From contig JAUYPW010000030.1 of NCBI GenBank assembly GCA_030697525.1, positions 1 to 57,734 on the forward strand: DNA of 57,734 nt, read 5' to 3'. The DNA comes from a bacterium. GTDB lineage: Bacteria > Patescibacteriota > Minisyncoccia > Sungbacterales > HO2-52-23. The position numbers and the translations under genes were made by a program. Under the pieces are notes generated by a model, which had not been told where the DNA came from, made no database searches, and saw only the letters and a program-made list of their open reading frames with translations. This document shows positions 5,086 through 43,172 of the stretch, in pieces. Positions within the stretch are counted from its first letter, which is position 1; the number at the start of each line of letters is the position of its first letter.

Positions 5086-5909
5086 TACTCTTTAGCTAAA
5101 GCAATTAAATTTTTAAAGAGAATGGCTACCGTCACCGGCCCCACTCCTCCGGGAACGGGAGTTATAAAGCCGGCTCTTTGGCTAGCCGATTCAAAATCAA
5201 CATCGCCAGAAAGCTTGCCGCCGGATTCCGAAGTTCCGGCATCAATAACCACCGCTCCCTTTTTTATCCAGTCGCCTTTTATAAATTTGGGCTTGCCTAT
5301 GCCGGTTATTAAAACATCGGCTTTTTTTATAATTTCTTCCGGACTTAACGTACCAGATTCAACCAAAGAAAAACCGACTTTTTCGTTGAGAAACCAAAGA
5401 CCTGTCGGTTTTCCGACAAGAGAACCCGCGCCGACAATAACTATGCTCTTTCCCTGAAAATCGATTTTGTACTCCTCCAGCAAAGCCTTTACCGCACCAG
5501 CGACGGGAGGCATAACTTCGCTTTTCCCTACGACAAAATTACCAACTGCTTTGGTTGAAAGAACATCCACGTCTTTTTCGGGCACTATGGCATTTAGAAT
5601 ATATTGGGTATTAAGATGTTTTGGCAGAGGAAGCTGAATTATGACTCCGGTATTTCTTTTTTCGTGCATTATTTCCGAAAGACGTTTACGCAGTTCATTG
5701 GTAGTAATTTCCTCCGCAAATGGGTAAATTTTAAAATCAATCCCCAGAAATTCCGCGGCTTTTCTTTTCTGATTTATGAATTTCTCCACCACCGGATTTT
5801 GGCCAACCACAACAACGGCCAACCGTAACTTTTTATTTAAACCAGTAATTTCTGTTTTTAGTTCTCCTAGGATTTTTTCGCCTAATTTTTTACCATCTAG
5901 TATGACCAT
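5085..5909 (-). CDS. folD: bifunctional 5,10-methylene-THF dehydrogenase / methenyl-THF cyclohydrolase
   Basis: FolD-like over its full length (MVILDGKKLGEKI..., GAGSLVGKP, PVPGGVGPVT). The start is moved to the ATG at 5909, because the track's 29-aa N-terminal extension runs through the structured element at 5919..6072. Confidence 0.9.
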   Translation of the reverse strand: MVILDGKKLGEKILGELKTEITGLNKKLRLAVVVVGQNPVVEKFINQKRKAAEFLGIDFKIYPFAEEITTNELRKRLSEIMHEKRNTGVIIQLPLPKHLNTQYILNAIVPEKDVDVLSTKAVGNFVVGKSEVMPPVAGAVKALLEEYKIDFQGKSIVIVGAGSLVGKPTGLWFLNEKVGFSLVESGTLSPEEIIKKADVLITGIGKPKFIKGDWIKKGAVVIDAGTSESGGKLSGDVDFESASQRAGFITPVPGGVGPVTVAILFKNLIALAKE

Positions 5910-5918
5910 CTTGTTTTT

Positions 5919-6072
5919 GGGGCGCGGTCGAGGTAATGCTCGTAGAAAACCATAGAAAGTTTGGCTTGCTTGGTTCCGCTTCCAGCGGAAAGCCAAACTT
6001 TCTCTGAGTGAGTCCTGCCGCTGGAGCAGGACGAACGTGTTTTCTTAGAGCGTTACCGAGGGAACCGCGCCC
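5919..6072 (-). ncRNA. 154-nt structured intergenic element, copy 1 (candidate cis-acting RNA or MITE-like repeat)
   Basis: It fills the glyA-folD gap almost exactly. Terminal inverted repeat GGGCGCGGTTCCCTCGGTAA / TTACCTCGACCGCGCCCC. Internal hairpins GTCCTGC-TCCAGCG-GCAGGAC and TTCCGC-TGGAA-GCGGAA. Co-linear with the copy at 21969..22122. Confidence 0.5.
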
Positions 6073-6076
6073 TGCC

Positions 6077-7333
6077 CTAAAAAATTTTAAATTTAGCGCA
6101 AAGCTTTCTTACTTCTTTTCTAATCATAATCTGCGGCTGTTTCTCCAGTAATGTATCATAAATCAGCTTTGCCACAATTTTCATCTCCTTTTCTTTCATC
6201 CCGCGAGTGGTTACAGACGGCGTGCCCAGACGAATTCCCGAAGGGTCAAACGGAGAACGGGTGTCGTGGGGAATGGTATTGCGGTTTACCACAACTCCGG
6301 CCTCTTCAAGCTTGTCCTGCGCGACTTTACCGGAAATTCCAAGGTTAGTGAGATCAATCAGCATCAAATGATTGTCTGTACCGCCGGACACCAGACTAAA
6401 ACCCAGTTTTTTTAATTCTTGGGCGAGCGCCTTCGCATTTTTTACTATCTCGTGGCCATATTTTTTGAAAGATGGTTTTAGAGCCTCGGCGAGAGCAACA
6501 GCGATGGCCGCGGTTTGGTTGTCGTGCGGTCCCCCCTGAAAAACAGGAAAAATTGATTTATCAATCGCTTTGGCCAGATCAATTTTATTTTCTTTGGCAA
6601 TTTTTGAATCGCAATTGGCAAAAATAATTGCTCCTCGCGGGCCCCGAAGAGTTTTGTGAGTAGTGGTGGTTACAACGTCCGCGTATGGAAAAGGAGAAGG
6701 ATGCGCCCCCGCGGCAATGAGTCCCGCGATATGAGCCATATCTACCATCAGATACGCCCCTACTTCATGAGCGATATCGGCAAATTTTTTAAAATCTATA
6801 GTACGCGGATACGCAGTAGCTCCTGCCACAATTATTTTCGGTTTTTCTTGATCAGCTAATTTTTTTATTTCCTCATAGTCCAGCAAACCGTCTTTATTTA
6901 AAGTATATTGCACCGGAGTATAAATTTGCCCCGTAATACTTGCTTTCCAACCGTGAGTCAAATGCCCGCCAAAAGGAAGCGACAGACCCATAAGTTTATC
7001 CCCGGGCTTTAACAGGGCGTAGTAGACCGCCAAGTTGGCCGGAGAGCCTGAATAGGCCGCAACATTTACATGCCAGTTTTTACCCAGTTTAAAAACATGC
7101 CTCGCCCGCTCTTGCGCCAGAATTTCAATTTGATCAATTATTTTATTGCCGCCATAGTACCGTTTCCCAGGATACCCTTCCGAATATTTGTTGGTAAGTT
7201 CCGAACCCAGAGCCTCCCGTACCGCGCGCGAGACAATATTTTCCGAAGGAATCAAACCAAGCGTCTCACCCTGGCGCTTGATTTCTGCTTTTATCAATTT
7301 GTCTACCAAGGGATCAGCTTTTTTTAAAATCAT
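6077..7333 (-). CDS. glyA: serine hydroxymethyltransferase
   Basis: SHMT-like throughout: LIPSENIVSRAVREALGS, YPGKRYYGG, and the PLP-lysine region TTTTHKTLRGPRG. Confidence 0.95.
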   Translation of the reverse strand: MILKKADPLVDKLIKAEIKRQGETLGLIPSENIVSRAVREALGSELTNKYSEGYPGKRYYGGNKIIDQIEILAQERARHVFKLGKNWHVNVAAYSGSPANLAVYYALLKPGDKLMGLSLPFGGHLTHGWKASITGQIYTPVQYTLNKDGLLDYEEIKKLADQEKPKIIVAGATAYPRTIDFKKFADIAHEVGAYLMVDMAHIAGLIAAGAHPSPFPYADVVTTTTHKTLRGPRGAIIFANCDSKIAKENKIDLAKAIDKSIFPVFQGGPHDNQTAAIAVALAEALKPSFKKYGHEIVKNAKALAQELKKLGFSLVSGGTDNHLMLIDLTNLGISGKVAQDKLEEAGVVVNRNTIPHDTRSPFDPSGIRLGTPSVTTRGMKEKEMKIVAKLIYDTLLEKQPQIMIRKEVRKLCAKFKIF

Positions 7334-21968: not shown

Positions 21969-22122
21969 GTGATGCGGTCGAGGGTATTCTGATTGAAGAC
22001 AACGGGAGGAGCGATTTGCTTGGTTCGTCCGTTTCGGACGAAAATCACGACGACCATTAGCGAGGTCACCGCTGGAGTGACCGAGTCGTGTCTGAAATCA
22101 GGGATACCCGAGGAACCGCACA
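21969..22122 (-). ncRNA. 154-nt structured intergenic element, copy 2
   Basis: Begins 4 nt after the stop of 22126..24093 and ends 43 nt before the glyQS ATG. It has the same terminal repeat core (GCGGTTCCTCGGGTA / TACCCTCGACCGC) as copy 1. It has the same TCCAGCG hairpin loop at the same offset and the same GAACCAAGCAA block. Confidence 0.5.
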
Positions 22123-22125
22123 CGA

Positions 22126-24093
22126 CTACTCCACCACTCGCCAATCATTAAAACTTGTAGTCGAGTCCTCTTTCAGCTCTGTAGTAAGAGTACCACTTTC
22201 AGCTGTTATCTTTCCATTGGTAAAAGTATCTGTGGCGCTAAAAATGGACTGATTCAAAAGCTTTACTGTTTTACCAACATCCGCTTCCGAAGGAATTATA
22301 GAAATCTGAAACGCCCCCACCAGAGCCGTATCAAGAACCCCTTTGCCGGCCGGTAGAGAGCCGATTATCCAGAGAACTTCCCCCGATGATTTATCAAAAC
22401 TTAATTTCGTTCCCGACGGAGATATTATATTTTCCCACTTTACATTTGCAGGCATCGTAGCCCGAATTTCGGCCCCCTGCAAATCGTTGGTGAAATTCCT
22501 AACTTCCCAATGGATAGTATAAGTGGTTTTCTCGCCGACTTTCGGAGGCATAGGTCCCGAATTAGCTATCAAGAGAGACGATCTGAATAATGATTTGGCA
22601 TTGAAAATAATTTTGGATGACGATTTCAAATCAAGTCTGTCTTCATATACCAAAGACTTGGCATCACCAAATTCTTCCGGCACACTGGAGGTTTCTATTA
22701 TTGAGCGGAGTCGCAAGACAAGATTTTTGTCTTTATTGCTCTTCATGGGAAAACTATCTCTAGCCAGAACAGAAAAATTAAGTTCCCCTTCCTCCCCGGA
22801 TTTAATTTCTTTAAGAGCTGATAAATTGCCAGGAGACCACACCACGGCCTGAATTTGAGAATCAAATACGCCGCCGTTCTCCGCCGAAACAGAAGAAATA
22901 TCTAATATGTTCCTGCCGGAGCTCGGCAAAAAGTCTTTTGATTGATTAACACCCGAAACATAAGGACTGCTTTCCAGGAAAGCTTTTACACTTATGTTCC
23001 GTAGCGAACTTTCGGTGTTATTCTTATACCGAATAGAAAAATTAAGAGCCTCCCCGGGGGAGATAATTCGATCTCTCTTGCCATCAATCAGTCCCTCCAC
23101 CATCAGCGGACTCGGAGCTATCTTTATGTCATATATTGACTCTCCATATGAATTAAGCTCTTTGCTGCGCTCATCAAAGATTCCGAGACTGGCTCTGAAA
23201 CTTTTTACCTCATCCTCTTCGCCGCCAAGTTTCCCCCGAACAACCACCTCGCCTTCCTGCCCTATTTCTAATTTGTCTATTTTCCAGATACCCTCACCGA
23301 TGTCCGGCTTGGGTTCGGAAGACAGATACACAAATCCGGGAGGATAATTAATTTGCAGAGATAAATTTTCAAAAGACTGTTCTGCTTCCGATATATACCG
23401 CACTTTTATTTCCACCTCTTGGCCAGACAGAGCTTTCTCCGGAGCCTCCCACGATATTTCCAAGGGAACACGTTCAATTGTAAGAACTCTGGAAGCTTTA
23501 ATAGAAAATCGGGCCCGCAGACTGGAAGGACGATAAGAAAATATAGCCATAACTAATTTATCTTCCCCTTCTCTACCGAAGAGTCTTACATTTATTTCTG
23601 TTTTCTGTTCTTCTCCGACAGGCAGAGTTCCAAGTTTTTTTATGATTCGCGGAGGAGTCTGCTTTTCTGATCCGTCATCCTGAACCAATTTCGTTCCTGA
23701 AGGAAAAACAATAGATAATTCTGTATCTTCCAGGACAGATTTAGAAATATTTCTATAAGTAAAGGGGATGGTTACCGCCTTGCCTGATTCCAAGGGCTCT
23801 TCATAAGCAACATCTAGTTTTACTTCCTGGCCTCGGCCGCCAAAATAAAACCAAGCCGCAAGACCCAGAACCGCCAGCACAAATACAGCCGCCGCCCACC
23901 AGAAAAATTTGGAGAAATCTTTTGGGGATCGCCGCACTCTGGTACTTGTGGCTTTCTTGGCACCGCTCCCCATCCACGACTTGGGCAATTTGCCCGAGAA
24001 TTCTCCCATCTTCCATTTTTTACGCATACTCCTGTCGAGTTTTTCGGCATTGGCGCCATAAAGTTCTTTTTCTAAATCCTCTAAGTTAGACAT
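22126..24093 (-). CDS. hypothetical N-terminally anchored surface protein (655 aa), predicted beta-rich repeats
   Basis: Basic N-terminus followed by the helix FFWWAAAVFVLAVLGLAAWFYF. The long Ser/Thr/Glu-rich extracellular part has repeating roughly 100-aa sandwich-like segments. Overlaps recO by 8 nt. Confidence 0.65.
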   Translation of the reverse strand: MSNLEDLEKELYGANAEKLDRSMRKKWKMGEFSGKLPKSWMGSGAKKATSTRVRRSPKDFSKFFWWAAAVFVLAVLGLAAWFYFGGRGQEVKLDVAYEEPLESGKAVTIPFTYRNISKSVLEDTELSIVFPSGTKLVQDDGSEKQTPPRIIKKLGTLPVGEEQKTEINVRLFGREGEDKLVMAIFSYRPSSLRARFSIKASRVLTIERVPLEISWEAPEKALSGQEVEIKVRYISEAEQSFENLSLQINYPPGFVYLSSEPKPDIGEGIWKIDKLEIGQEGEVVVRGKLGGEEDEVKSFRASLGIFDERSKELNSYGESIYDIKIAPSPLMVEGLIDGKRDRIISPGEALNFSIRYKNNTESSLRNISVKAFLESSPYVSGVNQSKDFLPSSGRNILDISSVSAENGGVFDSQIQAVVWSPGNLSALKEIKSGEEGELNFSVLARDSFPMKSNKDKNLVLRLRSIIETSSVPEEFGDAKSLVYEDRLDLKSSSKIIFNAKSLFRSSLLIANSGPMPPKVGEKTTYTIHWEVRNFTNDLQGAEIRATMPANVKWENIISPSGTKLSFDKSSGEVLWIIGSLPAGKGVLDTALVGAFQISIIPSEADVGKTVKLLNQSIFSATDTFTNGKITAESGTLTTELKEDSTTSFNDWRVVE

Positions 24094-32365: not shown

Positions 32366-32815
32366 ATGAGCAAAGACTTAGCCGAAAACCGCAGAGCAAG
32401 GTTTGACTACGAAATCATGGAGACATATGAGGCGGGAATTGAGTTGCTCGGATTTGAAGTCAAAGCCATCAAAACCGGCAGAGGCAATCTAACCGGCTCT
32501 TTTGCAATAGTAAAAAATAACGAAGTTTTTCTGTTAAACGCCAATGTCCCGCCATACCAGCCCAAAAACGCGCCAAAAGACTACGATCCCCAAAGAACCA
32601 GAAAACTTCTTTTGAAAAAATCCGAAGTCAAAGAATTGCTTGGTAAAACTTCCCAATCCGGACTCACGCTGATTCCATTGAAAATATATTTAAAGCGTGG
32701 TATGATAAAGATATTGCTGGGTCTGGCGCGCCACAAAAAGAAGGGTGACAAAAGAGAGACAATAAAAAAGAGAGAGACTCAAAGAGATATAGATCGAGTG
32801 ATGAAAAAATTTTAG
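32366..32815 (+). CDS. smpB: SsrA-binding protein
   Basis: NRRARFDYEI..., GIELLGFEVKAI and a basic C-terminal tail. It lies immediately upstream of the tmRNA. Confidence 0.95.
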   Translation: MSKDLAENRRARFDYEIMETYEAGIELLGFEVKAIKTGRGNLTGSFAIVKNNEVFLLNANVPPYQPKNAPKDYDPQRTRKLLLKKSEVKELLGKTSQSGLTLIPLKIYLKRGMIKILLGLARHKKKGDKRETIKKRETQRDIDRVMKKF

Positions 32816-33199
32816 GGGATGATCGGCTTCGATGGGTTTTTGAAAACAAAGAATCAAGCTGGAGACGCACGGTGTCTCCACAAATCCTCCGTGCAAACCA
32901 ATAAGTGCAAACTTATTCTCTAACTTCAACAGGCAGCCTGCTTTAGCAACTGCCTAATGAAGTTCCCCGGCTTTACGTCGGGGCATCGGCCAGCTTATGC
33001 TCGTTCGGCTGATTACCGGTGTTATACTCCGAGCTACGCCCCGTGCCACAACTTGTTGTGATTCGGGGTTGGCTTCTCTGACTGCTCGATACGAGAAGCG
33101 ACATTATCGGGTAAAATAGTTCCGATTAGTTGGAACAAAGCTTGTATAAATTCTTTGCTGGATTAAATCCAGACGGGGGTTCGATTCCCCCCATCTCCA
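32815..33199 (+). ncRNA. ssrA: tmRNA (SsrA)
   Basis: The 5' end GGGGAUG pairs with the 3' end CAUCUCC, including the G3-U pair, followed by the discriminator A. T-arm GGGGGTTCGATTCCCCC. The tag reading frame at 32907-32954, GCA AAC ... GCC, encodes ANLFSNFNRQPALATA, followed by a TAA stop at 32955-32957. CCA is not encoded. Confidence 0.9.
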
Positions 33200-33296
33200 T
33201 TACCAAGTTTTTTGAGACACGCAAAGGAGAGCAGGATTCGAACTTGCCTTTTTTGGGGCTTGATGCTATATTTTATACCTAAATAAATTTAAAGCC

Positions 33297-43058: not shown

Positions 43059-43172
43059 TGCCCTCGGGCAGATTCGCCCCGTCATTCGACGGGGCGTCCG
43101 GTCGTATGGCCGGACGAACCTCTAGTCTTCGGCTTCGGAGGCCGACGCTCTATCCAATTGAGCTACGGGCGC
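43059..43172 (-). tRNA. tRNA-Arg(CCG)-like gene interrupted in the T-loop by a 40-nt double hairpin; the 3' part pairs poorly (possible pseudogene or chimera)
   Basis: The minus-strand sequence GCGCCCG-TA-GCTC-AATTGGATA-GAGC-G-TCGGC-CTCCGAA-GCCGA-AGACT-AGAGG-TTCG forms a perfect 5' two-thirds with anticodon CCG. Hairpins at 43075..43096 and 43095..43116 follow, and then AATC-TGCC-CGAGGGC-A. Confidence 0.5.

Follow-up and report, generated by a model that had tools for sequence, protein, structure and literature searches.

The 57,734-nt contig JAUYPW010000030.1 (assembly GCA_030697525.1), which is the window analysed here, carries two copies of a structured element, one between glyA and folD and the other upstream of the gene for glycine-tRNA ligase. 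Both are copies of a non-coding, Y-shaped repeat of roughly 150 bases that has been inserted about 28 times between genes of the source genome, that of a groundwater bacterium, and they probably belong to a family of mobile, non-autonomous foldback repeats spread across a class of the Patescibacteria (the candidate phyla radiation, CPR). The element is not a riboswitch, nor is it an RNA specific to folD or glyS. Few known genomes are as streamlined as those of CPR/Patescibacteria, in which mobile elements are considered scarce. The persistence across a class of a repeat that has an invariant core, repeatedly splits translationally coupled genes and shows no visible transposase bears on what agent mobilises hairpin repeats where insertion sequence (IS) elements are lacking.

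In an earlier, preliminary description of this DNA two stretches (5919-6072 and 21969-22122) were reported to be co-linear on the minus strand, and this proved accurate, with a mean column identity of 78%. Positions are those of the window, and the parts of both copies are collected in Table 1. The shape common to the two is a basal stem (P1, P2 and P2') leading to a three-way junction from which arms P3 and P4 emerge, and the fold energies of both copies beat those of shuffled sequence. The fold predicted for single-stranded DNA (ssDNA) is the same Y as that predicted for RNA, with a z of -9.2. The 5' and 3' ends had been described as paired, which holds for the outer (GCGG/CCGC) and inner (GGTA/TACC) pairs but not for TTCCCTC, which lies opposite TCGA in an internal loop. 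The two hairpins stand as described, the first displaying an identical loop TCCAGCG on stems that differ between the copies (GTCCTGC/GCAGGAC and GGTCAC/GTGACC), and the second being formed by TTCCGC/GCGGAA or TCGTCCG/CGGACGA and followed in both copies by the identical GAACCAAGCAA. Inspection by eye revealed no pseudoknots between the conserved loops. Domain identifications support the assignment of glyA and folD as the genes flanking copy 1, and of the glycine-tRNA ligase gene downstream of copy 2.

Rather than the two copies originally noticed, BLAST and iterated nhmmer searches of the whole source assembly (G000; 746 kb in 36 contigs, labelled C1, C5, C15, C21 and so on) returned 34 matches, 28 of them full length. 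The unit measures approximately 150-170 nt and makes up about 0.6% of the genome. The 28 full-length copies are strongly diverged, with a mean column identity of 55%, and fall into subfamilies. Folding of their alignment by RNAalifold recovered the same Y, with compensatory changes in 25 of 28 pairs; in the completed structure 83.5% of cells were paired, as against 31.5-47% when the partners were slid, and double-sided changes were found at 42 of 48 pairs, values reached by none of 500 shuffles. Contigs of the source DNA runs break inside the repeat. Such copies resemble novel non-coding RNAs or riboswitches, which bears on annotation, and they break assemblies.

The covariance-model search proposed in the preliminary description was run on 41 relatives with a model of the family (R1), and located the element in 30 of them. 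Copy numbers ranged from 0 to 46 per genome, the maximum occurring in G017 (genomes other than the source are labelled G, and fetched loci L), and five genomes of the same family as the source contained no copies by this model. An even sample of 151 genomes of the class gave full-length matches in 43, representing at least 35 families, many with a single copy and some with 10-16. Stem sequences are entirely different across this range, and it is the junction ACG, the CCAGCG loop (CCWGCG being invariant in A2) and the ACCAWGC bulge that are retained. Both the invariant loop and the bulge contain CCA(N)GC, and the class-wide invariance of these unpaired motifs suggests that they are probably recognition sites of a putative trans-acting mobilising factor. 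Among GlyA-anchored loci from named metagenome-assembled genomes (Patescibacteria, Parcubacteria group or Sungiibacteriota), element matches occurred in only 2 of 70, and look-ups of exact proteins in search of strain variants returned the source sample alone. In a tree of the copies, subfamilies are common to different genera and terminal branches are short. The same tree places near-identical copies in G033 (L025) and G007 (L023), which are assigned to different families of the order, a pattern indicative of either horizontal transfer or a binning artefact.

Insertion is most readily seen at the glyA-folD junction. The glyA stop codon overlaps the folD start codon (ATGA) in seven or more related genera, and only in the source genome are the two separated by 154 nt, an arrangement that reflects a lineage-specific insertion into an ancestral overlap. 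A copy ahead of folD is also found in G017, where it is antisense and adjoins a different gene. More generally, the genes flanking the copies are unrelated both within and between genomes, with no synteny even where a genome has a single copy, and no recurrent neighbour that could serve as master copy or transposase was present among the flanking genes. Copies following rpoC in three genomes fall in different subfamilies, and are therefore independent insertions rather than orthologs.

Clean filled and empty sites were identified in two congeneric pairs. G007 (C8) contains an insert of about 200 nt where G024 (C26) is empty (CTGAATAA/AAAATGCC), and the boundaries of this insert are marked by a direct repeat of 5 nt, AATAA, within which the stop codon falls. 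In the second pair, the empty site of G002 (ACCTTTGGAAGATAATTTTATG) corresponds in G022 to TTC-GCTCGCT-GATGCGG...CCGCAT-T-GCTCGCT-TATAA, and the upstream open reading frame (ORF) now terminates at a TGA within the insert. Neither empty site contains a palindrome, so that the element must supply its own basal stem. This also disposes, as a general rule, of the idea that P1 was a pre-existing terminator or palindrome with the element inserted at its tip, to which the locus-specific P1 arms and three terminator-like cases had pointed. At other orthologous sites the copies are decayed or truncated, and at one site shared by G007 and G024 the outer frame is the same and the interior different. Inverted duplication of the target was likewise considered, and was convincing only at the antisense copy C21:8793-8950(-), whose 5' arm covers the neighbouring gene's start codon and initial codons and whose 3' arm is an inverted near-copy of that sequence (19/22); these arms possibly arose by hairpin extension through template switching, or by insertion of the element into a terminator. 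Beside a second element copy in G022 (L024, about 1700-2200) lies a small two-gene insert that by eye resembles a HicB/HicA toxin-antitoxin pair; the congener G002 (L238) lacks this insert and at that place retains no more than a 5' fragment of the element.

The copies were originally placed immediately 5' of a gene, but the rule that holds consistently is that they directly follow, on its 3' side, the stop codon of the gene upstream. Of 41 copies preceded by a long ORF, 32 have that codon 8-29 nt ahead of P2, and thus at or within the 5' arm of P1. New copies occupy either the gap of a few bases that separates a stop codon from the following gene or the final codons of the preceding one. At C15:28323-28481(-) the upstream ORF enters the element and stops at the element's own TAA (in GGTAAC), and at L024:787-951 of G022 it uses an element-supplied TGA, in GCTCGCTGA, so that insertions can rewrite the last codons of a gene. 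In a count that took in G000, G017 and 20 loci from across the class, about 70 copies shared the orientation of the upstream gene, as against about 20 antisense copies (approximately 3.5:1; binomial p = 1e-7). For G017 the corresponding figures are 29:11 with respect to transcription and 27:12 with respect to replication, two causes that are not separable, and in the source genome GC skew tracks the coding strand. Sequence past P1 is A-rich in both window copies, no terminator-like site was found in 5700-6300, and copy 1 is without a U-tract, so that read-through into the next gene would be expected. Given the prevailing sense orientation, the element is expected to be transcribed along with its neighbours, yielding an intercistronic RNA that is highly structured and lacks a terminator U-tract.

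Variation among the copies is modular. Those at C15_28323, C23_3089 and C32_1805 have closely related outer cores but unrelated, perfectly paired outer P1 arms (TTTTAGC, TTTTGGGT and GAAAACTT, respectively), and the last of these is a recombinant, with the ends of one subfamily and the interior of another. Chimeras are formed between the element and a second family of foldback repeats, B, whose units measure about 170 nt and have inverted ends of 22 nt (AGCTCATCATCATGCTTTCCGC): at four loci the element's 5' part through ACACG gives way to B, and at C21 8404-8657 a full element takes the place of the apex of B. Other repeated hairpins are nested within the P4 arm of the long copies in G017. The heptamer GCTCGCT stands directly outside both P1 arms in about nine copies from at least six genomes, exactly so in four, and all four exact occurrences of GCTCGCT-N(135-165)-GCTCGCT in about 1.9 Mb of fetched loci coincide with model matches. 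Since the heptamer lies inside the insert in the G007 empty-site case, it is a terminal direct repeat of some subfamilies and not a target duplication; it may be a site of cleavage or recombination. The conserved terminal inverted repeats of classical miniature inverted-repeat transposable elements (MITEs) were not found in the family, as P1 arms pair but differ in sequence between close copies.

The changes on the two sides of the stems had at first been taken as a mark of selection on RNA structure. That they are compensatory was confirmed, but the inference drawn from them is weakened by the composition of the pairs. RNAs under RNA-level selection normally contain G.U pairs far more often than A.C. 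Among 3430 paired cells in a model-based alignment of 79 copies there were 2976 Watson-Crick, 93 G.U, 114 A.C and 247 other combinations (1049, 56, 56 and 163, respectively, in the source genome alone), a comparison that is itself blunted by the unpurged mutations of young copies and by alignment errors. A sense strand at least as stable as the antisense, the other expectation for RNA-level selection, was not seen either: in alignment-free calculations the antisense RNA was the more stable by 10 kcal/mol in 28 of 28 source copies and by 6 kcal/mol in 55 of 63 copies from relatives. On the sense strand, the regions left unpaired are rich in A and C. The strand of the element is well defined, with the reverse strand scoring about 75 bits lower under R1. 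Template switching during replication can create or repair perfect stems in one step, giving rise to compensatory changes in DNA (PMC8794818). The lack of a G.U excess, the greater stability of the antisense strand and the identical ssDNA fold lead us to interpret the covariation as complementarity being maintained in DNA, and suggest that pairing is kept on DNA rather than by classical RNA selection. Compensatory stems are thus, in this case, no proof of RNA function.

A mechanism consistent with these features would have the fold matter on ssDNA, or on both strands, during mobilisation. Template switching, hairpin-templated copying or similar processes acting on DNA would preserve perfect Watson-Crick pairing in its stems, and the junction ACG, CCAGCG loop and ACCAWGC bulge would be the sites read by the trans-acting factor.

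Several observations weigh against a mobile repeat of this kind. No obvious target duplication accompanies the copies of the source genome, and beyond the AATAA of one filled/empty pair no consistent duplication was found among copies. A transposase-like multi-copy gene was sought in the source genome and none was found. A RAYT-like gene of the Y1 (HUH) type does occur in 32 of 41 relatives, but it does not correlate with the element, being present in 23 of 30 genomes that have the element and in 9 of 11 that do not; G017, with its 46 copies, lacks the gene. The limits of the G.U versus A.C comparison belong here too, and the sense bias, together with the class-wide retention of single-stranded motifs, would also fit a function at the RNA level. 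The source genome has a single-copy RAYT-like Y1 gene of its own (C33:198-857(-), with HYH and YIHLNP motifs), bracketed in region 190-960 by four copies of an unrelated 22-nt REP, GTGTCAAACTAAGCTTGGCACA. The locus has the classic REP-RAYT layout, here in a CPR genome. In a REPIN-RAYT system copies of the element would flank this gene and RAYT would track the element, neither of which is the case. In the same genome, a 447-aa protein with an acidic repeat region (C21:16655-17998(+)) is accompanied by a second, partial copy, 97% identical, at the end of a contig (C1:17508-18083(-)), and by eye appears to be of the DUF444/YeaH type and not a transposase.

Of the two readings offered initially, that of a MITE-like element agrees with the dispersed copies, their presence or absence between relatives and the lack of synteny, while that of a dedicated cis-acting RNA for folD and glyQS founders on the lineage-specific insertion and the unrelated flanking genes. 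The location of both window copies upstream of genes related to one-carbon and glycine metabolism, and the fact that T-box leaders precede glyQS in Firmicutes, might have pointed to a riboswitch or T-box-like leader of the two genes. Such a leader has next to no probability, being refuted by the distribution of copies: 26 further full-length copies adjoin unrelated genes, no element occurs at glyA-folD in any other genus examined, and the G017 copy ahead of folD is antisense. The preliminary description had itself recognised no known riboswitch, and a scan of Rfam agreed, giving no match to the element at gathering or E-value thresholds (best E = 3 and at most 15 bits for 5890-6100 in Rfam 15). 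A broader role in cis, compatible with a mobile origin, is that of an intercistronic or 3'-end RNA which stabilises the upstream mRNA or marks a processing site, and which spread by duplication and was retained by the host. We consider this unlikely, although it would account for the predominantly sense orientation, the placement directly after stop codons, the conserved single-stranded motifs with A/C-rich unpaired regions on the sense strand, and the absence of a U-tract, which makes read-through possible; REP, ERIC, BOX and Correia elements do act in this manner on co-transcribed genes (PMC3049150). Against it, the range of 0-46 copies among genomes of one family implies that no copy is indispensable, insertion replaces a translationally coupled ATGA overlap, some 20 copies are antisense, and the sense RNA shows no G.U excess and is 6-10 kcal/mol less stable than its complement. 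Nor does placement beside stop codons require a function, since in a compact genome purifying selection would by itself let insertions survive only in the few bases that separate a stop codon from the ribosome-binding site that follows.

A further possibility dispenses with a transposase altogether, the apex of one hairpin being copied onto another stem by template switching or gene conversion, so that propagation and recombination both proceed by copy choice. The chimeras between the two families in both directions (a B base with the element's core, or the element's base with B after ACACG), the orthologous site with a common frame and different interiors, the recombinant subfamily of C32_1805, the perfect stems devoid of G.U pairs and the failure to find a transposase are all in its favour, and template switching is able to create and repair hairpins (PMC8794818). 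However, the two empty sites had no prior hairpin or palindrome and the insert carries its own P1, and the class-wide invariance of the loops suggests a sequence-specific partner. To our knowledge, moreover, there is no known case of template switching having carried units of 150 nt to unrelated loci, and we regard spread by this route alone as very unlikely. A mobile foldback repeat acted upon in trans remains our preferred interpretation.

Our search of the literature found no paper describing the element. Its features are those of the small interspersed intergenic repeats, namely a non-coding unit of 100-200 nt, a dispersed intergenic location, a strong fold, and presence or absence between relatives. 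We conclude that it is a new family, akin in kind to BOX, ERIC, Correia and REPIN, and also resembling the hairpin elements of compact organelle genomes. Like BOX, RUP and SPRITE, ERIC and Correia, it is an interspersed non-coding repeat of 100-200 nt with extensive predicted secondary structure, is intergenic, (by prediction) co-transcribed and oriented with the coding strand, and is modular, recombining and variable in copy number between relatives; in Streptococcus pneumoniae the orientation of BOX, RUP and SPRITE mirrors the coding bias (PMC3049150). Four traits set it apart. It is a three-way-junction Y and not a simple rod; its internal loops are invariant class-wide while its stems, including the terminal one, are free to change in sequence; it has no conserved terminal inverted repeats, related or parent IS, or consistent duplication of TA or another target; and its hosts are CPR genomes of about 0.6-1.2 Mb. 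With REP and REPIN it shares a hairpin-forming, non-autonomous nature, long residence in a lineage, an expected mobilisation in trans by a single-copy, host-like gene, and the presence of a RAYT-like gene in most of the genomes concerned, but its unit is not made up of two short REP palindromes. The repetitive hairpin-forming elements of mitochondria are likewise described as small mobile hairpins that invade short spacers of very compact genomes, encode no transposase and keep their helices by paired changes, and differ in being organellar, smaller and unrelated in sequence (PMC2800124).

Structure is likewise conserved over stem sequence in integron attC sites and in the T- or Y-shaped terminal hairpins of the parvovirus type, where an enzyme reads the folded single strand and conserved unpaired bases serve as recognition marks. 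Unlike these, the element is found neither in cassette arrays nor at genome termini; an integron integrase context was not seen either, though no search was aimed at one, and the analogy is one of principle only. Double-hairpin elements of compact mitochondrial genomes are further comparable small mobile hairpins, and we know of no report of a conserved three-way junction with invariant loops in the mitochondrial hairpin elements. It is conceivable, though rather improbable, that the invariant Y core is the docking site of a conserved Patescibacteria factor, in a class-wide partnership of the REPIN-RAYT type with a new kind of partner. A candidate would be a structure-specific ssDNA nuclease or recombinase or, alternatively, an RNA-binding protein for which the dozens of co-transcribed copies would be a means of punctuating or stabilising polycistronic mRNAs. 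Should this be true, the element and the foldback families nested with it would represent a general hairpin-based system of mobility or processing in ultra-small bacteria, undescribed so far, and a dedicated partner protein, if one exists, would be a new structure-reading nucleic-acid enzyme.

Table 1. Parts of the two window copies, adjoining genes, and related loci elsewhere. Positions are those of the window unless a contig (C) or fetched locus (L) is named.
Feature	Position	Strand	Remarks
Copy 1, complete element	5920..6072	-	glyA/folD spacer; fold -79.4 kcal/mol, z -9.2; covariance model R1, 147 bits
Copy 1, P1 5' arm GGGCGCGGTT	6063..6072	-	Partner 5920-5929 (GACCGCGCCC)
Copy 1, P2/P2' 5' strand	6039..6057	-	Partner 5932-5950; helices with covariation
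Copy 1, junction motif ACACG	6036..6040	-	ACG part invariant class-wide
Copy 1, P3 hairpin	6008..6036	-	Loop holds invariant CCAGCG, 6019-6024
Copy 1, P4 arm	5951..6006	-	Inner hairpin 5975-5989; conserved bulge ACCAAGC 5968-5974
glyA stop codon TAG	6077..6079	-	4 nt ahead of copy 1 P1; ORF 6077..7333, Pfam SHMT
folD start codon ATG	5907..5909	-	10 nt past copy 1 P1; Pfam THF_DHG_CYH domains
Copy 2, complete element	21969..22123	-	Between DUF11 protein gene and glycine-tRNA ligase gene; fold -59.7 kcal/mol, z -5.3; covariance model R1, 127.7 bits
Copy 2, P3 hairpin	22061..22088	-	Loop CCAGCG 22070-22075; junction ACACG 22087-22091
Copy 2, P4 arm	22001..22058	-	Inner hairpin 22025-22041; bulge ACCAAGC 22018-22024
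Stop codon TAG of 655-aa DUF11 gene	22126..22128	-	2 nt ahead of copy 2 P1; ORF 22126..24093
Family B or chimera, source genome	C21:3395-3566	-	
Family B or chimera, source genome	C27:10133-10298	-	
Family B or chimera, source genome	C5:10330-10572		
Family B or chimera, source genome	C21:8404-8657		
GCTCGCT-bounded copy	L024:788-948		
GCTCGCT-bounded copy	L035:1504-1667		
GCTCGCT-bounded copy	L161:14916-15083		
GCTCGCT-bounded copy	L179:11238-11396		

At the gathering threshold, the only Rfam matches in the window were a tmRNA (119.5 bits; 32815-33202, plus strand) and one tRNA (43105-43172, minus strand). Canonical terminators elsewhere in the source genome look unlike the element. Hairpins made of an A-tract, a GC stem and a T-tract, with perfect stems of 8-19 bp, are found in 102 of its 598 intergenic spacers, and from their abundance the genome appears to rely on ordinary bidirectional intrinsic terminators.
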